Positions 11,266 to 52,235 of a DNA stretch of 64,000 nucleotides are shown piece after piece. Positions within the stretch are counted from its first letter, which is position 1. Every line of letters begins with the position of its first letter. Under the pieces are notes generated by a model. The model worked only from the letters and a program-made list of their open reading frames with translations, was not told the origin of the DNA and did not search any database. Origin of the DNA: Thermoproteota archaeon (GTDB taxonomy: Archaea; Thermoproteota; Methanomethylicia; Methanomethylicales; Methanomethylicaceae); contig VGLU01000004.1 of the NCBI GenBank assembly GCA_016882195.1, positions 5,572 to 69,571 on the forward strand, in the 5' to 3' direction. Position numbers and translations under genes: made by a program.

Positions 11266-12471
11266 TCAGGTTATGCCTTCTCTCTTCAACTCGTCACACT
11301 GGTCCTTTGTGTAGCCCAAGAGGCTTGTTAGGATCTCCTCGTTGTTCTGTCCCAGTAGAGGCGCGGGCGTGAAGGTCTTTATCGGAGTCTCCGAGAACTT
11401 TATCGGACATCCTGCCACCCTTACCTTGCCGTACTGTGGCTGGTCTAGTTCCACGATCATCTCTCTTGCTTTGACGTGCTCGTCCTCAACAGCCTCCCCC
11501 ACGTTGTACACCGGGGCGGACGGGACATCATTTGCGAGGAGGAGCTTTGCGATCTCCCACCTCGTCTTGTCCCTCGTGTACTCCTCTATCAGGGTCTTCA
11601 GCGTAGCCTCGTTCTTTAGCCTGAGGTCGTTGGTGGCGAACCTTGGATCGTTTGTCCACTCAGACTTCCCTATGGCAGGGCAGAAGCGCCTCCAGATCCC
11701 TTCGTTGCCAACGGCTATTACAACGTATCCGTCCTTTGCCTTGAATATGTCGAACGGCGTTATTGAGGGGTGCTTTGCGCCTATCCGGGTCGGAACCTTG
11801 TGCTCCAGGGTGTACCGTATAACCGCGTTCTCGAGGACGGCAAGCATGGAATCCACCTGGGCGACATCTACCTTCTGACCCTTTCCGGTTGCATCGCGGT
11901 ACCTAAGCGCCGCGAGTATCCCAATGGTGAGAAACAGTCCTGATATGATGTCCCCTATGGAGGATCCTGCCCTCACCGGCGGCTTGTCAGGCCAGCCGTT
12001 CAAGTCCATAAAGCCGCCCATGGCCTGACCTATGATGTCGTAGCTGGGCCACTGGCTGTAGGGACCGTAATGACCGAAACCAGAGCCGCAGGCGTATATC
12101 AGCCTCGGGTTGACCTTTCTTAGTTCCTCGTAGCCTATCCCCCACTCGTCCATCGTGCCCGGCTTGAAGTTCTCTAATAGAACGTCGCTCTTCTTCGCCA
12201 GTTCTTTGAGGATCTCTTTGGCTTTGGGGCTCTTCAGGTTGAGCGTGAGGTCCTTGTGGTTTCTGTGCAGGCTAACGAAGTATCCGCTCTTATCCGGTCC
12301 TTGGACATTGGGGAAGAAGGGCCCCCATTCTCTGCTCATGTCGCCAAAATTTGGCCTCTCGACCTTGATAACCTCTGCACCCAAGTCTGCTAGGACCATG
12401 CCGCAATATGGTCCGAAGAGGGCGCCAGTTAGGCTTAATACGCGAATACCTTCAAGTGGTCTCTTCAACAT
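11266..12471 (-). CDS. family III CoA-transferase (CaiB/BaiF)
   Basis: IRVLSLTGALFGPYCGMVLADLGAEVIKVERP N-terminus and ~400 aa length. Confidence 0.8.
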   Translation of the reverse strand: MLKRPLEGIRVLSLTGALFGPYCGMVLADLGAEVIKVERPNFGDMSREWGPFFPNVQGPDKSGYFVSLHRNHKDLTLNLKSPKAKEILKELAKKSDVLLENFKPGTMDEWGIGYEELRKVNPRLIYACGSGFGHYGPYSQWPSYDIIGQAMGGFMDLNGWPDKPPVRAGSSIGDIISGLFLTIGILAALRYRDATGKGQKVDVAQVDSMLAVLENAVIRYTLEHKVPTRIGAKHPSITPFDIFKAKDGYVVIAVGNEGIWRRFCPAIGKSEWTNDPRFATNDLRLKNEATLKTLIEEYTRDKTRWEIAKLLLANDVPSAPVYNVGEAVEDEHVKAREMIVELDQPQYGKVRVAGCPIKFSETPIKTFTPAPLLGQNNEEILTSLLGYTKDQCDELKREGIT

Positions 12472-30901: not shown

Positions 30902-31472
30902 GATGTACATACCGGTTGTATTCATGGGCGGGCAGTACAACCACCTTATCGTCAGGGCGCTGAAGGAGCTTGGCGTATCCAGCAGACTTGTGATGCCAAA
31001 TACGACGCTGGAGACGCTGAAGGGAGTGGACGGGCTTGTGATGGGCGGCGGACCCCACAGTGTCTACGACGGGATGGATAAGTTCGGGTGTGTGCCGGAG
31101 ATAATCAAGAAGGCGGGGTTTCCGGTGCTGGGGATATGCCTCTCCCACCAGCTGATCGGCAAGATCCTTGGCGGGGAGGTGGTGAAGGGAAGGAATCCCG
31201 AGTACGGCAAGACCACGGTGGAGGTAATAGAGCCCGATGACATACTTCAAGGGGTAGGTCGTGAGTTCGTGGCGTGGGCCTCCCACAACGACGAGGTGAG
31301 GAAGGACGGCGGGAGGTTCGTCGTGCTGGCGAGGAGCGAGTACTGCGAGGTGGAGGCGCTGAAGGACGAGAGAAGGTCCGTATATGGGGTGCAGTTCCAT
31401 GTTGAGGTGGCGGACACGCCGAAGGGTATGATCATATTAAGGAACTTTATCGGCGTGTGCAAGAGAGGATAG
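30894..31472 (+). CDS. GMP synthase subunit A (class I glutamine amidotransferase)
   Basis: GICLSHQLIG catalytic Cys; HVE at the C-terminus. Confidence 0.85.
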   Translation: MSKMYIPVVFMGGQYNHLIVRALKELGVSSRLVMPNTTLETLKGVDGLVMGGGPHSVYDGMDKFGCVPEIIKKAGFPVLGICLSHQLIGKILGGEVVKGRNPEYGKTTVEVIEPDDILQGVGREFVAWASHNDEVRKDGGRFVVLARSEYCEVEALKDERRSVYGVQFHVEVADTPKGMIILRNFIGVCKRG

Positions 31473-31653
31473 CGTTAACATAAGTTATGGTGCAAAGCCC
31501 TAGAGGTTATTGAACTTTTTTTAGCGATGCGCCCTTCCGGCGACTAATTTGTTTTCCCTTATCTATTGTGGAGAACCAGCCCTGGGTCCTCGGTTATCTA
31601 CATGGAGGGCTAGATTTTTAAGTGAGGGTATTTTGATAGTCATGTGGGTAAAA

Positions 31654-31905
31654 ATGGCAACATTGGTAAAAATAGATGATAGAGGGAGAGTAACCTTACC
31701 AAAGGATTTGTGTATGAGAAGTGGTAGGGCGGCCGTAATCTCTGCAGGGACCTTTCTCGTGTTTATACCAATTTCGAGCAAACCTGCTGAGGCAGCGAGG
31801 GGCTGGTTAAAATCCAAGAGGGAGAGGGTTGAACTTAAGAAGATTGCGGAGAGGAAGGCTCGTGAAGATGCGGTCTCAAGGGCTAAGAGGAGAGAACAGG
31901 CTTGA
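31654..31905 (+). CDS. AbrB/SpoVT-type antitoxin (VapB-like)
   Basis: MATLVKIDDRGRVTLPKDL swapped-hairpin motif. Its stop overlaps the start of the PIN gene (ATGA). Confidence 0.6.
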   Translation: MATLVKIDDRGRVTLPKDLCMRSGRAAVISAGTFLVFIPISSKPAEAARGWLKSKRERVELKKIAERKAREDAVSRAKRREQA

Positions 31906-32327
31906 TGATAGAGAGCGATGTCCTCTACGCCTATGTAAAGGAGAATGACTGGCTCAAAGAGGCGTCTGAAAGGCTCGTCAGCAAAATAGAGAAGGGTGAT
32001 TTTGGAGAAGTTTATGCGAGCAGGGAAGTTCTGCATGAGCTGTACTATGTGTCACTTGACGAGGAAGTAAGGATAGACGACTACGTATACCGTGTGGCAA
32101 ACCTTACCTCGGTTAAGAACCTAGTCTTTCTAGAAACCAGCTACGAGATAGACCTTCTCGCGATCTCGCTGATGAAGCAGTACAGGCTGACCTCGATATT
32201 TGATGCGTATTACGCGGCAACGTGCTTGAACCAAGTGCGCGACCGCAAGATAGTTACAACGGACACCGTTTACGACAGAATTCCCGGGATAAGTAGGATA
32301 GATCCAAGAGATCTTAAACTTAAATAA
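31902..32327 (+). CDS. PIN-domain toxin (VapC-like)
   Basis: 141 aa with conserved acidic residues (ESDVLYAY...TTD). Confidence 0.7.
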   Translation: MMIESDVLYAYVKENDWLKEASERLVSKIEKGDFGEVYASREVLHELYYVSLDEEVRIDDYVYRVANLTSVKNLVFLETSYEIDLLAISLMKQYRLTSIFDAYYAATCLNQVRDRKIVTTDTVYDRIPGISRIDPRDLKLK

Positions 32328-32363
32328 CAGATCAAGTCGTCCGCCGTAAAAAATGGGGCGGCT

Positions 32364-33036: not shown

Positions 33037-33128
33037 GTTAAATATCCCACGTCCCATCTAATAAGAATTCCCACTAAAATGAGCTTAACGATGCAATGTG
33101 GTGATGCAAGCTGGTTTTTAATGGTGTG

Positions 33129-33200
33129 CGAGCAATACTGAGATTGGTAAAATGGATGAAAGAGAAAGTAACCTTGCCAAAGGATTTAGCACGAAAGATG
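33129..33200 (+). pseudogene. frameshifted remnant of a vapB 5' end
   Basis: ATTGGTAAAATGGATGAAAGAGAAAGTAACCTTGCCAAAGGATTT is ~85% identical to 31660-31706 but is out of frame. Confidence 0.4.
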
Positions 33201-33314
33201 ATGGGCGGATTGCTAGACGATGCGGAATGATTGTTCAAGCGATACAATCAATTATAAATAGATGGCGTTCTTTCGTGATAAATAAAATAAAAAAAGAAAA
33301 AAAGGAACGGATTC

Positions 33315-33761
33315 TTAGGGCATCGTGAACTGCGGGGATGGCGCGGATCCGCCACCTGCAGTAGTTACTAGGAGATAATATGTTGCGCCTTGAACTCCAG
33401 TTAAAGTACATGTAATTTTTTCGCTATTTCCTGCACTTATTGTAGTGTTTCCGGTTAATGTGGTCGTTGCGTCGACGGTGGCGCCGCTACTCACTAGCAC
33501 AAGGCTTGCAGATGCAACAGTTACATTCTGGGCTCCAGTGTTAGTTACTATGAATGATGCAACACTGTGGTTTGTGGCGTTCGTTATCACTCCTGTCACT
33601 GTTATTGTATCCGAGATCCCTCCTGGGGTTATCGCTGCGCCTCCTATGAAGCCCATGACGAAGCTGTAGGTCACGACTGCGGCTGCGACGGCTATGACGA
33701 TGAGCAGCAACGTGGCGATGATCGGCGAGATACCCTTCTTACTTCTACTGATTGTTTTCAT
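33315..33761 (-). CDS. archaeal type IV pilin-like protein (class III signal peptide)
   Basis: KKGISPIIATLLLIVIAVAAAV N-terminus followed by a Thr/Ser/Gly-rich beta domain. Confidence 0.7.
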   Translation of the reverse strand: MKTISRSKKGISPIIATLLLIVIAVAAAVVTYSFVMGFIGGAAITPGGISDTITVTGVITNATNHSVASFIVTNTGAQNVTVASASLVLVSSGATVDATTTLTGNTTISAGNSEKITCTLTGVQGATYYLLVTTAGGGSAPSPQFTMP

Positions 33762-33810
33762 GAGTGTCTATTTGTTAAACACTTAAATGATATAATTAAA
33801 GATCCAACAA

Positions 33811-34359
33811 TTGGTTTTAAGGATAACAATTAATATTCGCCAATGGATACACCATCATCAGGTGGGTTTTTTGAGGGGGGGCTATGCCTTGATTCTGCGG
33901 GTTGGCAGACCGGTCACCATCGCGGCCGGCAGGCGGACGTTCAGCATAGATCCGGGGGTCTACGTCTATTCAGGCTCGGCCCTGGGACTGGGCGGAGTCG
34001 AGGCGAGGGTCAGGAGGCATATGTGGTACTACAAGCGAAGAGGCGGCAACAGGGATCGCGTAATTGAAGGGACGGAGTTTCACTGGCACATAGATCGCCT
34101 CCTACCTTTGGCAGACTCCTTCATTATAGTCCACGCCGAGTCAAAGTTCAGAACCGAATGTCTTCTCGCTACCATCCTTAAGGAGGGGGGGATGCGAGTT
34201 GTTAGGGGCTTCGGGAGCACGGACTGCAGATCCGGCTGCGGTGGGCACCTCCTTTACGTGCCGGGCGGCGATGCAGAGGAGGCTGTAATGGTAGTGATGG
34301 AAGGCTTTAATTCGTTGGGGATCAAGCCATCGCGCCCATTAGAAACAGAACGATCCTGA
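33811..34359 (+). CDS. DUF123-like (GIY-YIG/Uri-superfamily-like) protein
   Basis: GVYVYSGSA...RVRRHMW...FHWHIDRL motifs recalled from DUF123. Start uncertain. Confidence 0.4.
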   Translation: MVLRITINIRQWIHHHQVGFLRGGYALILRVGRPVTIAAGRRTFSIDPGVYVYSGSALGLGGVEARVRRHMWYYKRRGGNRDRVIEGTEFHWHIDRLLPLADSFIIVHAESKFRTECLLATILKEGGMRVVRGFGSTDCRSGCGGHLLYVPGGDAEEAVMVVMEGFNSLGIKPSRPLETERS

Positions 34360-38443: not shown

Positions 38444-41400
38444 CTACTGGGAGAAGAATTCCAGTCTCTTTATCCCCACGATCTCATCGAATTCTATGCC
38501 GAGAGCCTCGAGGACCTGCCCGAAGGTGGACTCTATGTGTCCCACGTATTTGTCCACATCGATCTCGTCTATCCTTGCCAGCTGGACCGGCTTAACGCCC
38601 AGGCCGCCCTGAACCTTTACGAAGGAGATTATGTCGCCGGGCTTGACCTCCTTGCCCTTATCCTCCAGCTGTTTTGCCGCCTTCACGTGCTGGGGCGTCG
38701 TCTTATGGTAGCCGGTGAGCGGCCTCGAGAGCATCACCTTGAAGGTCAGCTCGTCCAGGGAGAAGCGCCTGTTCTTAAGCCTTGTGTAGCAGTTCTGCAC
38801 GATCCCCTTTATCCTCGCCTTGGCCCTCGCGAAGTCCTGCGGGGTCTTTACCTCCTTCAGGACCTGGGTCATCTCCCCGAATGCGGACTGGATGAAGACG
38901 GGGGTGTTCCGCTTCTTCCCCATCAGCCCTTTTATGTCCACCACGCCGTTGTCCATGACGCCGAGGTAGTTCTTCTTCCTTCCGGAGAAGGTAACGAAGG
39001 TGTACCTCTTGTCCACCTCGAGGTCGATGCCGAAGCTTGATTCCGCCCAGCTGAGGAGCGCTCCTATCTGCTCCTTGGTGGGCTGGTACAAAAACAAACT
39101 ATCGGTGTCGGCATATATCACCTTGACTCCGGATTCTGTGGCCTTTTTGATGGTCTCAGTTATTATGTGCCTGCCTATGGCGGTGGTGCTGTCGGCCATC
39201 GAGAGGCAGTAGAGCGGGAATATCTCCGCACCGAAGACTCCGTAAGACTGCCCACAAGGGATTAATCTGCCATTGCGGCCAGCAAAGACAGTGTGGTTCT
39301 TTTTTGTAGTTATACAGTAAACTTGTCCATTGTATGGCATCTTAGTTTTTTTCCAATGATCTGTGTGTTGATTTATGTTTCTCCAAGTTATTCTAAATAG
39401 CTTAGCACCCTCATCATAGAATCGCCTTGATGAAGAAGCAGATGATGTCTTAAGCTTCGGGACGACGAAGTCTATCGCGTTGTATATCGCCTCTGCTGTA
39501 ACAAACCTGACTCCCCCGTTTTTATGGTCTGCGACAATGAATCTATGTTCTGGAGTGACGATCAGATCAGTAGATCTTCCGTTCTTGAAATGTAATAGAT
39601 CACCATTATAGTCGAATACCTGTGTCTCCACAACCTCGTCCACTTCTGGTTCGAGGGTAGCCGGATTTACGTTGATTACTTTGTCACCAATGTTGATATC
39701 CTTTACATTCTTTACACCATTGGTTGTGAGTATATCGGTGTCGCCTGTGAAACAAGCATTGAGGAAGACCTTAAGGGCCTGTTGCACGACCTTGTACCAG
39801 TCCCTCTCCTCCTGGGTGAGGGCGGGATCCTTGGACTTTGCCTTGAACCACTTCACCCTGACATCCTTCAGCAAGCCTATGATCAAGGCCATCAGCCCCA
39901 GCCGCTTTGTGCAGACCCAGTGTTTTGTGTCCGGGACCACGTTGGTCCGGCAGGACTCGTGGACGCACCTTACGGTCTCGTAGCTGAGGTTCCACTTTGC
40001 GATTATGCTGGGGTACAGGCTTGCAAAGTCCAGGACGACCACATCGAAGTAGACGTTGGACTCGGGCTTTATGACTATGGCGCCGTGGTACTTCTTCCCC
40101 TTGATCACCGCTGTTGTGGAGGCCTCTCCCTTCATGGCTTCTATGTCGCTCTCGCGGGGTATCAGACAGTTTCTTGCTCTGTGCTCAAAGAAGAATAGGC
40201 CCCTTATCCAGCGGGATATCCCTTGGCGCGTTACGTCCTCCATGGAGAGACGGGAGATCCTCATTATCATGGTGATGAGGTTCATTACCATGTTTGAGTT
40301 CTCGGTGGTAAGGCGCAACGCTATGAGGGAGTCCCTGAAGCAGTAGGACGCCAGGTCAAGGTAGCTGAGCTCGGAGACGGTCTTCTCTATCTGGATCTTC
40401 TTGATATTGAGGAGGGAGCTTGCCACGGCGTCGAGGGCGACCTCCCTGTATGAGTTTCCGAAGGCGTAGATCTGTATGGCGTGGTTGTGCATGAACTTGT
40501 AGAGGTCTATGTGTACCCCTGTGGGGAGGAGGGCGATCTCCCTTCCCATTATTATGGGGACCTCCTCCTTCTTCATGCCCAGGACCTGCGCGCGCCGCCA
40601 GAGGTAGTGGAGGTCGAAGTTGTCGCCGTTGAAGGTGATCACGATCGGGTAGTCCAGGAAGTACTTGAAGAGGAGCTTTATGAGGGACAACTCCTCCTCG
40701 AAGTACTCCAGCTGAACATCTTCCGGGAGTTCTGGGGGCCTGATGCCCTCCTCCACACCCATCCTCTTGAGGAGGAGGACCTTCCTCAGGCCGTCCGATC
40801 CAGCGAGGGATGCGCATATCACTTGGTTCCTGGCCACGCTCGGGTCAGGGATCCTGTCCAGCGCCTCCGTGGCCACCTCGATATCCACTGCAACGCGGCG
40901 GTAGTCGGGCACAGGGCTGATGAAGAGCGGGAACCAATCTGTGAGGGCGCTGAGGAGCTCGGGGGGTGACCTCTGGAATCTCTCCCTTATCGGCTCGAGA
41001 GGGACGGAGGGATCCTCCTTGACGAGGTTGCCGTCCTTTATTCGGTAGGAGTATCCCGGGATGAGCCCACGGTCGTAGATGTAGCAGTCGTGGTACCGGA
41101 TGTTGTCCTCCCAGGAATTCTGCAGAAGGTCCCTTATGTTGCGCCCACGGCCTCCTATGGAGAGGGGATCCCTGGCAACGACCTTTGTCATCCCTATCCT
41201 CTTGTCGTGGAGGGGGTCGTACTTCTCCACCTCTACTGTAGATTTTCTGTCGAAGCCGGGGTGGGATGCGATCTGCCTGTCCGAGAGGACCTCCTTGAGA
41301 GGAGTGTCGGTGAGGCAGTAGGGGAGGTGTCCTGTGTTGTCGTACCAGAAGACGGTTTTGCCCTTCTCGAGATCGTAGAGTTTCAGCAGCGCCTTGGCCC

Positions 41401-41704
41401 TGGAGCCGCTGTACGTGACGGAGAGCAGGGAGAGGGGACCCGCATTCTTTGGGGTCTCGGCCTCGAAGATGGTCCTCTCGACGACCTCCTCCTGCTCGGG
41501 TCCCTCGGCATACTCTTCTGGCCCCAGTTCCTCCGGCTCTGCCTCCACTTCATCGTAGGGCTCTTCTTCGGGATACTGCCCCTCCCTCTGGGAGGTTTCC
41601 TCGGCTTTCTCTGCCTTGACAGGTTCCCTCCGGGGGCTCTCGGGGGGCTCGGATGGTTTCGAGTCTCCCTTCTTGCCGGGCATGAACCTATCAAGACTTA
41701 CCAT
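38444..41704 (-). CDS. polB: family-B DNA polymerase containing a mini-intein in motif B and an acidic N-terminal extension
   Basis: Exo I VAVDIEVATE, motif A LDFASLYPSII, motif C IYADTDS. Motif B is split as KVFLNA|intein|SYGVFG. Confidence 0.9.
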   Translation of the reverse strand: MVSLDRFMPGKKGDSKPSEPPESPRREPVKAEKAEETSQREGQYPEEEPYDEVEAEPEELGPEEYAEGPEQEEVVERTIFEAETPKNAGPLSLLSVTYSGSRAKALLKLYDLEKGKTVFWYDNTGHLPYCLTDTPLKEVLSDRQIASHPGFDRKSTVEVEKYDPLHDKRIGMTKVVARDPLSIGGRGRNIRDLLQNSWEDNIRYHDCYIYDRGLIPGYSYRIKDGNLVKEDPSVPLEPIRERFQRSPPELLSALTDWFPLFISPVPDYRRVAVDIEVATEALDRIPDPSVARNQVICASLAGSDGLRKVLLLKRMGVEEGIRPPELPEDVQLEYFEEELSLIKLLFKYFLDYPIVITFNGDNFDLHYLWRRAQVLGMKKEEVPIIMGREIALLPTGVHIDLYKFMHNHAIQIYAFGNSYREVALDAVASSLLNIKKIQIEKTVSELSYLDLASYCFRDSLIALRLTTENSNMVMNLITMIMRISRLSMEDVTRQGISRWIRGLFFFEHRARNCLIPRESDIEAMKGEASTTAVIKGKKYHGAIVIKPESNVYFDVVVLDFASLYPSIIAKWNLSYETVRCVHESCRTNVVPDTKHWVCTKRLGLMALIIGLLKDVRVKWFKAKSKDPALTQEERDWYKVVQQALKVFLNACFTGDTDILTTNGVKNVKDINIGDKVINVNPATLEPEVDEVVETQVFDYNGDLLHFKNGRSTDLIVTPEHRFIVADHKNGGVRFVTAEAIYNAIDFVVPKLKTSSASSSRRFYDEGAKLFRITWRNINQHTDHWKKTKMPYNGQVYCITTKKNHTVFAGRNGRLIPCGQSYGVFGAEIFPLYCLSMADSTTAIGRHIITETIKKATESGVKVIYADTDSLFLYQPTKEQIGALLSWAESSFGIDLEVDKRYTFVTFSGRKKNYLGVMDNGVVDIKGLMGKKRNTPVFIQSAFGEMTQVLKEVKTPQDFARAKARIKGIVQNCYTRLKNRRFSLDELTFKVMLSRPLTGYHKTTPQHVKAAKQLEDKGKEVKPGDIISFVKVQGGLGVKPVQLARIDEIDVDKYVGHIESTFGQVLEALGIEFDEIVGIKRLEFFSQ
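39248..39754 (-). other. 169-aa mini-intein (no homing-endonuclease domain)
   Basis: Begins CFTGDTDIL (block A), has TPEHRF (block B) and VYCITTKKNHTVFAGRNG (block F). Ends ...LIPCGQ followed by Ser. Removing it restores K-x3-N-A-S-Y-G. Confidence 0.7.
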
Positions 41705-41755: not shown

Positions 41756-41971
41756 TCAGCCCGAGAACCGCCACCTCTCCAGCCGCTCCTCCCCTGATCG
41801 GGCCTTCTTCAGCCTCTTGTAGTGCTCCTCGCACAGGTAGAGCCGGCCGGACTCGTTAACATCCATTCCGGCATCCTTCATGAGACGGGCATATGACGGG
41901 GAGAGTGATCTTACGGCGGCTTTATCGCAGCCCTTGACCGAACAGGCCTCACCCTTCTTTACACGACCCAC
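41756..41971 (-). CDS. small Cys/His-containing (zinc-ribbon-like) protein
   Basis: 71 aa with CSVKGC...LCEEHYKRLKK; co-directional upstream of polB. Confidence 0.4.
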   Translation of the reverse strand: MGRVKKGEACSVKGCDKAAVRSLSPSYARLMKDAGMDVNESGRLYLCEEHYKRLKKARSGEERLERWRFSG

Positions 41972-42004
41972 TTTAGTCCCTCGCTGTTTATATTATTTAT
42001 CAGA

Positions 42005-43273
42005 TTTTGTAAACTTTTCGTTGGATTTAAATACATGACCAATTGTTGGGAAACCATAATTTGTGATAGCTATAAAGAGTGTAAGGCAACGTTACATTCC
42101 ATCATGTATAATACTATGCTTAATGGAGCAATTCAGACTCATGATCAATGAGTGTATAGAAATAGGTATGACGAGTAACATTTCTTCGCTGAAAGCGCTC
42201 TCTATGAGGGCATATCATAAACTTGAGCCTTATAATGTGCCATCTTACTACAAGCTTTGTGCCATTTCAAGAGCGGCAGTGATTCTTACGTCAAGAAGGA
42301 AGTCGCTACGAAGGGGCATGCCGACTAAGAGCCCTTACGTCATGCGGCGGCATCTTACCTCATGCTATGGATTCAAATTCATCGGTAATGCTATAAGAAT
42401 ACCGGTGGGGCATAGAGAGTTCTTTGAAATTGAGTTAAACAAACACACTCAAGAGATTCTCTCCGACCCTGCCTTGAGGGTGCGTTCCTTTACACTAACG
42501 AACACCCATTTGAGCATCTGCTACTCGAAGGATGTTCAGGAACTGGAATGTGCAGATATCGCTGGCTTGGACAGAAATCTGAGAAACATCACCTATGGCA
42601 ACGATCAGCATGTAGTAAAATACAACCTATCAGAAGCAGTTAAGATAGCCAGGCGGACGAGCAAGATCATTGCTTCCTTCAAAAGGAAGGACATGCGGAT
42701 AAGGAAGAGGATAGCGTCGAAGTATGGACGGAGACAAAGGAACAGGGTCAACCAACTGCTTCATAATACAACCAAAGACATTGTTGAAAGGGCGTTTGCG
42801 AAAAGGGAGGCGATAGTTCTTGAGGATATTAGAGGCATTAGGAAATTGTATCGAAAGGGAAACGGACAAAGTCACAGATACAGAGGCATAATGAACGCTT
42901 GGTCATTCTGCGAGGTGCAGAGACAGATAGAGTACAAGGCGAAATGGAAAGGCATCCCAGTAATGCGCCTATCCAAAGAGGAAACTATGGGCACCTCCAC
43001 CCTCTGCCCGATATGTGGGGAGAGACTCCTGAATGGGCAATATATTAGCCGCCAGTTGTGGTGTCCTTCATGTGGAATGAAAGCAGACCGGGACATAGTT
43101 GCTGTATTAAATCAATCGCATAGGGGACGGGTGAGGTTCGCCCGTTCCCTGCCATGTGATGATAAGGCGAAAGGCGGGGCAGCTGAAGCTATGAGGGGGA
43201 ACCCTCTACGGATGGAGGTAATCCTCAGAGTCGATGCCCCGAAGTCGAGTCATGATAAAGACTTGACAGAACC
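42005..43273 (+). mobile_element. complete TnpB-only IS200/IS605-family element copy C
   Basis: Left-end motif TGTAAAC..TCGTTGGATTTAAATAC (shared with 12535-12563), tnpB, right end ending CTTGACAGAACC. Lies 38 nt upstream of a tRNA gene. Confidence 0.65.
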
Positions 43274-43283
43274 TAAGCTTTAA
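42063..43283 (+). CDS. tnpB: TnpB (IS200/IS605 OrfB)
   Basis: 406 aa with RuvC-like core and zinc finger CPICGERLLNGQ...WCPSCGMKADRDIVAVLNQ. Confidence 0.85.
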   Translation: MIAIKSVRQRYIPSCIILCLMEQFRLMINECIEIGMTSNISSLKALSMRAYHKLEPYNVPSYYKLCAISRAAVILTSRRKSLRRGMPTKSPYVMRRHLTSCYGFKFIGNAIRIPVGHREFFEIELNKHTQEILSDPALRVRSFTLTNTHLSICYSKDVQELECADIAGLDRNLRNITYGNDQHVVKYNLSEAVKIARRTSKIIASFKRKDMRIRKRIASKYGRRQRNRVNQLLHNTTKDIVERAFAKREAIVLEDIRGIRKLYRKGNGQSHRYRGIMNAWSFCEVQRQIEYKAKWKGIPVMRLSKEETMGTSTLCPICGERLLNGQYISRQLWCPSCGMKADRDIVAVLNQSHRGRVRFARSLPCDDKAKGGAAEAMRGNPLRMEVILRVDAPKSSHDKDLTEPKL

Positions 43284-45969: not shown

Positions 45970-46061
45970 TGGCGGGCCCGGAGGGATTCGAACCCTCGAC
46001 CATCGACTATCTCCGAGATCACCGGAGGCCGACGCCCTGATCCAGACTAGGCCACGGGCCC
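45970..46061 (-). tRNA. tRNA-Arg(CCG) with a 13-nt intron at canonical position 37/38
   Basis: Acceptor GGGCCCG, U8, D-arm GCCU/GGGC with A20, anticodon stem UCGGC/GUCGA, loop CU-CCG-G[intron UGAUCUCGGAGAU]A, T-arm GAGGGUUCGAAUCCCUC, discriminator G, encoded CCA. A 3-nt bulge AUA contains the 3' splice site next to a CUCC/GGAG helix. Confidence 0.8.
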
Positions 46062-50864: not shown

Positions 50865-50911
50865 CAACAGCTACAAGAAAATGTATATAAAAATATGTTT
50901 TTGATAATATA

Positions 50912-52229
50912 GTGGAGCTATACTCAGAAAGAGATGACGCCATTCAAATGAGCCATCCCTGGAGGACAAGGGGGGAGAAGAGGACAATAGCCGTAGAGTA
51001 CCAGCCGAGCGAGGAGATCCTGAGTTATCTCACTGACATGAGGGATGCGCTGAGGATGGCCCTCGTATACGCATATGTCATGGCAAGGGAGGACGACAGC
51101 AGGCTCCCAGGCCCTATAGCATTGAGGAGGAGGTTCAGGGAATGGTTCTACCCCCGATATGGCTATGCCAGGCACCACATCAGCCCCCTATGCAGAAATG
51201 CGGTGGCTTTGCTCAGGTCCTACAAGAAGAAGCATAAGAGGCTTGAGATACCTGAAGTTAAGAGGCTCGCAATGAGGATAGATGCAGAACTATTAAAGAG
51301 AGAGCAGGGAAATGATGGTTCAGTATCCGTCAGGATAACACTTCAACCATTCAAGTATGAACATATCACGTTTACCCCGAGGCACAAGAGGTGGGAGGAG
51401 TACAATAAAGGAAGGGCATCCGAGCTTCTGATCACAGATAGGAGGCTATACATAACCTTCGTTACCAACGGTGGGAAGAAGGAAACCCCTTGGTAGCAGG
51501 TTCGTTGCCTCAGACCTCAACTTCAACACAATAGACTCGACCGTGGCATCAAAGGAAGGTGAAACAGTCAAGCTCCGGCAGGCGAGGACAGAGCCTATTG
51601 GCAGAATCGCAAGGATACAGAACGACTTCTCAAGAAGGAGAAGAAGGATACAATTACATATAAAGAACCCGAAGAAGAGAGCGAAGAAGCTCAAAGAGAC
51701 GAGGGGGAGGCAGAGGAACAGGATAAGGGACGCTCTCCAAAAGCTCTCAGCTGAACAGGTGAGAGAGAATCCTGGCGCATCATTCGTCTTCGAGAGGCTG
51801 ACCAGGATAAGGGAGAACGATAATGCAAAGAGCAAGAAGCTTCGAACATACTTGAACAGATGGCCATACCGGATGTACCAGTCAATGGTGGAGTACAAGT
51901 CCACCTTTAGGACCGTATACGTGAGCCCAGGAGGGACCTCATCGAGGTGTCCCGTATGTGGTGGTAAGGTAAGGCACCCAGCCTGGGCTGTGAGCAGGTG
52001 CGAGAAATGCGGCGCAGACTACGGCAGGGACAGGCTTTCCTCGCTGGAGATACTCCTCCGTGGTATGCGCCTGTGCGGCCAACCGTTTGCCGTGAGTGCG
52101 GATGCCTCCTGGCGGCTTATGAGGGATGAGTACCTGTACGCTCCTGCCGTGCCTGACGGCTGGAGGGCAGGATGGACCGAGGCTGCCAACGCTCCGAATG
52201 GGAATGTATATGAAAATATACATTCCTAG
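50912..52229 (+). pseudogene. tnpB: TnpB-like gene (third subfamily) split by a frameshift near 51470-51500
   Basis: N-terminal half 50912-51496 and C-terminal half 51471-52229 (RuvC-like core plus SRCPVCGG...CEKCGADYGRDRLSSLEIL zinc finger) lie in different frames. Confidence 0.6.
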
Positions 52230-52235
52230 AAACGG

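Follow-up and report, generated by a model that had tools for sequence, protein, structure and literature searches.

A Gly-Gln-ending mini-intein in motif B of an archaeal family B DNA polymerase and its endonuclease-bearing relatives

In this study, we analyzed a stretch of 64,000 nucleotides (nt) from a Thermoproteota archaeon of the family Methanomethylicaceae (assembly GCA_016882195.1, contig VGLU01000004.1, positions 5,572 to 69,571 of the forward strand; hereafter the window), in which the gene for a family B DNA polymerase (PolB) is interrupted in its motif B by an in-frame insert of 169 amino acids (aa). Based on its conserved residues, its boundaries, its modeled fold and its relatives, the insert is very probably a splicing-competent class 1 mini-intein of the glutamine type, ending in Gly-Gln before the +1 Ser, which recently lost the endonuclease of a LAGLIDADG homing intein. 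Close relatives still carry the full-length allele at the same site, so that the deletion could be followed at the nucleotide level, and Gly-Gln proved to be the prevailing ending among related inteins in PolB motif B.

Boundaries, fold and conserved residues of the insert

Translation of the minus strand of 39248..39754 revealed 169 residues without stops, CFTGDTDILTTNG...GRNGRLIPCGQ, and the plus strand of the same segment contained many stop codons. An earlier note on this DNA, made from the sequence alone, had described an intein of this length and position in PolB motif B without stating the strand, and the translation reproduced its quoted residues exactly. The insert corresponds to residues 651-819 of an open reading frame (ORF) of 1086 aa and lies in frame between ...ALKVFLNA and SYGVFGAEIF..., splitting motif B as KVFLNA|...|SYGVFG. 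A whole-protein search yielded 1,437 PolB relatives, and among the best 120 matches we identified 95 orthologues with an uninterrupted motif B of the form K-x3-NASYG (KVFLNASYG, KVILNASYG, KVFINASYG, etc.). Since this motif is contiguous in the intein-free orthologues, the C-terminal boundary was set at Gln169|Ser. Taking out exactly Cys1 to Gln169 resulted in KVFLNASYGVFG with the correct spacing, and the spliced region from motif B to motif C aligned without gaps to PolB1 of S. solfataricus (1s5j, E-value (E) 3.5e-27, KVFINATYGVFG) and also to the KOD polymerase (1wn7, KILANSYYGYYG).

Other delimitations were rejected. If the intein ended at Asn161, the next residue would be Gly and motif B would be eight residues too long, and an intein starting with Ala (KVFLN|A) would remove one residue of motif B in comparison with the 95 intein-free orthologues. 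No canonical His-Asn end was found near the C-terminus of the insert, where Asn161 is the only nearby Asn. An antisense ORF (39672..39983, plus strand) was judged to be a by-product of the coding strand.

Pfam analysis of the insert resulted in hits to Intein_splicing (E 5.8e-7, 29.9 bits) and Hint_2 (E 1.7e-5), but in no endonuclease family, and when 1.84 billion representative proteins were scanned exhaustively with HMMER, 3,706 relatives passed E<=1e-3, of which 517 also passed E<=1e-10. Judged by these comparisons, the match to the intein family is far beyond chance. With the intein as the only query, a word-indexed homologue search matched just the fragment P0001. The family profile matched the PolB intein endonuclease PI-PkoII (2cw7, E 2.8e-17), and a search of the PDB with the insert alone gave weak matches, the best of which was the bacterial intein-like (BIL) domain 2lwy (E 1e-5). 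For the structure, AlphaFold reached a pLDDT of only 32 with the insert alone, and a usable model needed an alignment of 14 allelic inteins whose identity to the window copy ranges from 31 to 96% (alignment A1). With A1, the model reached a pLDDT of 83.9 and a pTM of 0.79, the linker of residues 105-116 being its sole low-confidence part. Foldseek found 57 matches in the PDB at E<=1e-3, and the best 50 of these, which reached TM-scores as high as 0.74-0.80, consisted entirely of inteins, BIL domains and HINT domains of the hedgehog type, so that the insert has a HINT fold by this model.

Blocks A, B and F, as named in the earlier note, and in addition block G were located in the insert (Table 1). 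Within A1, the invariant residues were C1, F2, T3, D5, T6, L9 and T10 in block A, D63, V66, T67 and H70 in block B, V145, C147, T149, N153, H154, A158 and G159 in block F, and G168 and Q169 in block G, and they include the whole catalytic set (C1, T67, H70, C147, H154, G168 and Q169). Restoration of the host motif on removal, Cys1, the T-x-x-H of block B, Ser+1 and the HINT fold are all as in class 1 inteins; the penultimate His and the C-terminal Asn of that class are replaced here by Gly168-Gln169. Since both deviations are known in functional inteins (PMC4031507), this ending defines a sub-type instead of excluding the insert from the inteins. Between blocks B and F, a linker or remnant of about 30 residues is left and no homing endonuclease is present, as is characteristic of a mini-intein. 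A tblastn search of phage genomes gave just weak N-terminal matches (~30% identity) in unrelated host genes, and a fold search in BFVD retrieved generic viral inteins with no specific link to the glutamine-type intein of iridoviruses.

Parent allele and loss of the endonuclease segment

The closest relatives with an intein at the same site (P0002, P0007 and the fragment P0001) carry a version of 430 aa. P0002, encoded on a contig of 76 kb, is 91-92% identical to the window protein in the N-extein and 96% in the C-extein. In the alignment, the additional 261 residues of P0002 and P0007 correspond to a LAGLIDADG segment that is missing from the window copy, in agreement with the absence of an endonuclease domain claimed in the earlier note. 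Two LAGLIDADG-like motifs were detected in P0002 (...CGWIISEGSL... and ...LYCGDGTT...), and Pfam LAGLIDADG_3 matched the parent segment with an E of 4.7e-4, just below its threshold. The pair of motifs with acidic catalytic residues expected of a LAGLIDADG homing intein is lacking in the window copy.

At the nucleotide level, the contig of P0002 (L001, ENA ERZ27250192) was collinear with the window at 78-93% identity, or 86-93% except for one segment of 725 bp. Compared with the intein at 11951..13240 of L001, the window intein lacks a segment of exactly 783 nt, removed in frame. In L001 and in a second locus, L033 (JGI 3300023177), the deleted 783 nt are flanked by two copies of the 9-nt sequence TTCATCAAA, one copy of which survives in the window; the blastn alignment breaks at window position 39427/39434. 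The 1290-nt parent intein contains only three pairs of exact direct repeats of at least 9 nt, one of which bounds the deletion. In the model, the scar sits in the disordered linker. Judged from these sequences, the loss bears the signature of a repeat-mediated deletion, by slippage or illegitimate recombination. It is very recent, because the endonuclease is still present in P0001, P0002 and P0007, whose PolB flanks share 93-96% identity with those of the window. As a side observation, the full-length intein of 1290 nt was 100% identical at the nucleotide level in L001 and L033, which come from two separate data sources.

Among further relatives, apparently intact endonuclease motifs were found in P0002, P0003, P0012 and P0013, and degenerate LAGLIDADG positions were found in the full-length alleles P0004 (SRGRP, SSGGT), P0006 (SKGHL, AGNLA) and P0011, which shows that decay of the endonuclease without deletion also happens in this family. 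Independent endonuclease-less alleles comprise P0010 with 175 aa (eight contigs) and P0014-P0016 with 177-180 aa; the intein site is empty in P0008, P0009, P0017 and others. Based on these sequences, the relatives cover every stage of the homing cycle.

Comparison of the retained intein codons with L001 revealed 16 synonymous and five non-synonymous differences, corresponding to a ratio of non-synonymous to synonymous rates (dN/dS) of 0.079, a value that spans all the time since the split from L001 and is based on 21 substitutions. The corresponding values were 0.18 for the N-extein and 0.10 for the C-extein. The low ratio of the intein indicates purifying selection on the splicing domain at least as strong as on the polymerase. 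In its composition the intein is foreign to the host gene, with a GC content of 0.418 against 0.572 in the exteins and a third-position GC content (GC3) of 0.42 against 0.80, and this contrast was also seen in L001. The window and L001 share 95.6-96.1% of intein nucleotides (dS 0.16) and 92.6-93.5% of extein nucleotides (dS 0.23-0.28); the higher similarity of the intein could reflect a later exchange or homing between the lineages, or noise from few sites.

The Gly-Gln terminus, the predicted pathway and rival explanations

To place the ending in its family, we compared the C-termini of the best 150 representatives from the exhaustive HMMER search, which provided 191 distinct intein C-termini: 98 ended in GQ, 70 in GN and three in HN. 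Sorted by their flanking exteins, 81 of the 191 belong to PolB motif B, and 74 of these 81 end in GQ. Two registers occur in motif B, namely K-x3-N-x|S as in the window (27 inteins) and K-x3-N|S, one residue earlier (54 inteins). All six inteins in motif A (|SLYP) also end in GQ. At the very site of the window intein, 24 of 24 alleles, from Methanomethylicia and Bathyarchaeia and with inteins 31-96% identical to that of the window, conserve Gly-Gln as expected for the glutamine type and end in ...AGRNG[RK]xxxxGQ followed by Ser or Cys. By its matches in genome collections, the allele occurs in Methanomethylicia, Nitrososphaerales and Bathyarchaeia, i.e., in the Thermoproteota (TACK). The clade shares a signature of Cys1, V-Y-C at block F and a conserved R-N-G motif, with Gly as the penultimate and Gln or Asn as the last residue. 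In raw counts, in which relatives are not independent, 98 of 104 Gln-enders and 38 of 85 Asn-enders carry the block F His, and 95 and 73 of them, respectively, carry Cys at F:4.

Based on this sampling, Gly-Gln is the norm of the family, not a local oddity, and would be functional rather than a sign of decay; its strict conservation in a large clade argues for an adapted solution, not a handicap. The earlier note had called the junction non-canonical. Its Gly168-Gln169|Ser+1 was recovered as described, and the term holds against the general intein consensus; it does not hold within the intein's own clade. A literature search for papers on inteins of Methanomethylicia found none. Speculatively, and with little likelihood in our view, the clade might even represent a mechanistically distinct intein type (Cys1, F:4 Cys, RNG, penultimate Gly, Gln or Asn) with a Gln cyclization dependent on the block F His and a redox-conditional maturation of the polymerase through Cys1 and Cys147 in a strict anaerobe.

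Glutamine-ending inteins are known to follow the ordinary class 1 path, with cyclization of Gln to a glutarimide as step 3 (PMC4031507, PMC8175363, PMC8229266, PMC549080). From the conserved residues, we infer the same chemistry, and with it actual splicing, for the window intein. In step 1, Cys1 would undergo an N-S acyl shift to a thioester, aided by Thr67 and His70 of block B, and in step 2 the N-extein would move to the side chain of Ser+1, giving a branched ester. Cyclization of Gln169 to a six-membered glutarimide would then free the intein. With Gly in place of His at the penultimate position, Gln169 is likely to be activated by His154 of block F; functional inteins that lack a penultimate His exist, and a role of the block F His in activating Gln has been suggested (PMC4031507, PMC8229266). 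A final O-N shift would form the peptide bond between Ala650 and Ser and restore the motif KVFLNASYGVFG. The remaining, immobile mini-intein may persist since imprecise loss would wreck a motif of the polymerase active site. Slow or conditional splicing, as suggested in the earlier note, is possible by analogy. For the Pab and Mma PolII inteins, splicing with Gln is slow and a change to Asn speeds it up, whereas the intein in the ribonucleotide reductase (RNR) of Chilo iridescent virus (CIV) splices better when it keeps its native Gln than when it carries Asn (PMC4031507).

Among characterized systems, the PolII (DP2) inteins of Pyrococcus abyssi (Pab) and P. horikoshii (Pho), the PolII intein of Methanoculleus marisnigri (Mma) and the CIV RNR (RIR1) intein likewise carry a C-terminal Gln in place of Asn, and those of Pab and Pho (185 and 166 aa) are likewise natural mini-inteins in an archaeal replicative polymerase. 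The host site of these glutamine-type inteins is PolD DP2 or RNR, whereas it is PolB motif B in the window. Pab and Pho PolII keep the penultimate His (PMC8175363), which is Gly in the window intein, and F:4 is Ser in Pab PolII but Cys here. The likeness to Pab PolII (2lcj) is at the general HINT level only (Foldseek E 2e-4, rank 46). The natural archaeal mini-inteins Mja KlbA (2JMZ), Pab/Pho CDC21-1 and Tvo VMA are also HINT domains of similar size without an endonuclease and gave Foldseek TM-scores of 0.62-0.67 to the window model; blocks F and G of Mja KlbA align to the window intein (YNGHIYDLTVEDNHTYIAGKNE). They end in Asn, unlike the window intein, and their endonuclease loss is assumed (PMC6801210), whereas parent allele and deletion junction are visible for the window.

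The nearest solved relative of the full-length family is PI-PkoII, intein 2 of PolB from T. kodakarensis (2CW7/2CW8; the 'pol-b' allele of Thermococcales). Its profile match spans the N-terminal HINT part and the LAGLIDADG domain, and it is likewise an archaeal PolB intein, but it has the endonuclease that the window copy lost. PI-PkoII presumably sits in motif B, at N|S, and we take it to end in the canonical His-Asn. The register of the window (KVFLNA|S) is one residue further along than the KOD site, the motif B of KOD being KILANSYYG.

Some observations weigh against a splicing-competent mini-intein. The Intein_splicing score of 29.9 bits lies under the curated cut-off of 35.8 bits, and the dN/dS of the intein does not single out the period after the deletion. 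In some cases an intein splices efficiently only together with its endonuclease domain ('mutualism'; PMC6801210, PMC8229266), and by analogy the recent deletion could have impaired splicing here. In addition, T. kodakarensis can do without PolB (PMC6759347). The only serious rival is a dead intein relic that would not splice, as a consequence of the deletion or otherwise, in a polymerase that would be inactive or an incipient pseudogene, with another polymerase (e.g., PolD) replicating the genome. The very recent date of the deletion, the endonuclease requirement of some inteins and the dispensability of PolB in at least one archaeon are in line with such a relic, which we nevertheless regard as unlikely: the ORF is unbroken across 1086 codons, every catalytic residue is kept, dN/dS amounts to 0.08 for the intein and 0.10-0.18 for the exteins, and endonuclease-less alleles are independent and persist elsewhere (P0010; P0014-P0016). 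Splicing competence is favored because of the invariant catalytic residues, the purifying selection and the persistence of independent mini versions.

Less probable still is a route outside class 1, in which Cys147 (F:4) would serve, like its counterpart in class 3 inteins, as relay nucleophile, or would form a disulfide with Cys1 that makes maturation of the polymerase redox-dependent. Class 3 inteins (Msm DnaB, 6BS8; AceL NrdHF, 6ZGQ) share the F:4 Cys, which is invariant in A1 and frequent among Gln- and Asn-enders, the class 3 split intein 6zgq was the best match by TM-score (0.74-0.80) among the listed PDB matches, and disulfide-controlled splicing has been reported for glutamine-type PolII inteins (as cited in PMC4031507, PMC8175363). 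However, class 3 inteins lack a nucleophile at residue 1 and use a triad of Trp(B:12), Cys(F:4) and Thr(G:5). The window intein has an invariant Cys1, Phe72 at B:12 and Cys167 at G:5, a position held by Cys, Ile, Val or Thr in its relatives with no conserved Thr; only Cys147 fits, and membership in class 3 was rejected. Cys also ranks second among F:4 residues in inteins generally (PMC4031507), and the cytoplasm of the host, presumably an anaerobe, should be reducing. A non-splicing insertion domain, a BIL or hedgehog-type HINT domain, or a shifted boundary with His-Asn can be considered effectively refuted on the available alignments, even though 2lwy is a BIL domain and the Pfam score is under threshold. 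The insert is absent from the 95 orthologues with a contiguous motif B, among them close ones, its exact removal restores that motif and gives a gapless alignment, and allelic copies carry a LAGLIDADG homing endonuclease. Splicing depends on the conserved +1 Ser or Cys, which BIL-type cleavage can do without, and an end at Asn161 fails on the Gly and the surplus residues mentioned above. Neither of the two findings that the earlier note had named as refuting its intein, a C-terminus elsewhere with His-Asn or an insertion domain, was thus obtained, and a glutamine-type class 1 mini-intein remains the explanation we prefer.

Host gene, neighboring features and significance

The host protein contains the domains DNA_pol_B (E 2.2e-41) and DNA_pol_B_exo1 (E 1.2e-15), by which we assign the gene to the family B DNA polymerases, and it is of the crenarchaeal PolB1/Dpo1 type. 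Apart from the insert, the gene is intact, as the earlier note had said, and its apparent disruption would be a self-splicing element. Named relatives belong to the Methanomethylicia (Verstraetearchaeota), and more distant ones to Bathyarchaeia, Nezhaarchaeota and Asgard archaea. The spliced junction of the mature polymerase is predicted to read ...VFLNASYGVFGAEIFPLY.... Coordinates of the gene and of the intein are compiled in Table 1.

Table 1. Features of the PolB gene and its intein in the window (strand given relative to the window sequence)
Feature	Position	Strand	Details
PolB precursor gene	38444..41704	-	ORF and Pfam; 1086 aa with intein, 917 aa predicted after splicing
N-extein, residues 1-650	39755..41704	-	ends in ...ALKVFLNA, first half of motif B
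Mini-intein, 169 aa, Cys1 to Gln169	39248..39754	-	based on translation, orthologue-fixed boundaries, HINT fold and GC
Block A, CFTGDTDILT, residues 1-10	39725..39754	-	Cys1, predicted nucleophile of step 1
Block B, DLIVTPEHRF, residues 63-72	39539..39568	-	Thr67/His70 as T-x-x-H, predicted to assist the N-S acyl shift
Deletion scar, surviving 9-nt repeat copy TTCATCAAG	39426..39434	-	linker ...KTSSASSSRRFY...; DNA comparison with L001 and L033
Block F, VYCITTKKNHTVFAG, residues 145-159	39278..39322	-	F:4 is Cys147, usually Asp; block F histidine is His154
Block G, RLIPCGQ, residues 163-169	39248..39268	-	penultimate Gly168, C-terminal Gln169
Ser+1, first C-extein residue	39245..39247	-	predicted nucleophile of step 2; Ser or Cys in every allele
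C-extein, 267 aa and stop codon	38444..39247	-	starts with SYGVFG, second half of motif B; contains motif C YADTDS

Some additional observations were made on the polymerase. The exonuclease domain is preceded by a Glu-, Pro- and Lys-rich N-terminal extension (residues 1 to ~95, ...KPSEPPESPRREPVKAEKAEETSQREGQYPEEEPYDEVEAEPEELGPEEYAEGPEQEE..., window ~41420..41704, minus strand), the Pfam domains beginning near residue 197. A second intein in motif C (YADTD|S, extein positions ~693-698) was detected in P0012, P0014, P0015, P0016, P0021, P0027 and P0046, and some orthologues harbor inteins in both motifs; the motif C site of the window polymerase is empty (YADTDS).

In the neighborhood, a gene of the TnpB/IS200-IS605 OrfB type is located just upstream of PolB (41997..43274, ORF 42063..43283, plus strand; 406 aa, Cas12f1-like_TNB E 7.4e-15). 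It is a recent insertion in the lineage of the window, because L001 has only ~7 bp there. A second insertion relative to L001, of ~1.37 kb (50866..52233), carries a TnpB-like protein in two overlapping ORFs on the plus strand (50912..51496 and 51471..52229, the latter with Cas12f1-like_TNB E 4.3e-8), and this copy is probably frameshifted or decaying. Two segments of ~0.7-0.9 kb (33087..33814 and 31465..32362) have no counterpart in L001, which has 30-60 bp there. Directly upstream of PolB, a Cys-rich ORF of 71 aa (41756..41971, minus strand) gave no Pfam match and is 93% identical to L001, where no gene was called. The sole tRNA in the window, tRNA-Arg(TCG) at 45970..46061 (minus strand, 92 nt by ARAGORN; Rfam match 45973..46061), may hold an archaeal intron because it is longer than a standard tRNA.

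Glutamine-type inteins have already been characterized, so that the window intein represents known biology without a new mechanism; the result is chiefly a clean annotation and does not overturn current understanding. Small natural mini-inteins with an unusual junction chemistry are also of interest for protein engineering. The window copy of 169 aa and its relative of 430 aa form a natural before/after pair, in which the birth of a mini-intein can be followed at nucleotide resolution, and they provide a ready test of the dependence of the HINT domain on the endonuclease. The Gly-Gln ending, usually called a rare exception, dominates a large family of PolB motif B inteins of TACK archaea. By this dominance, these inteins would offer a natural pool in which to study Gln-dependent C-terminal cleavage without a penultimate His.

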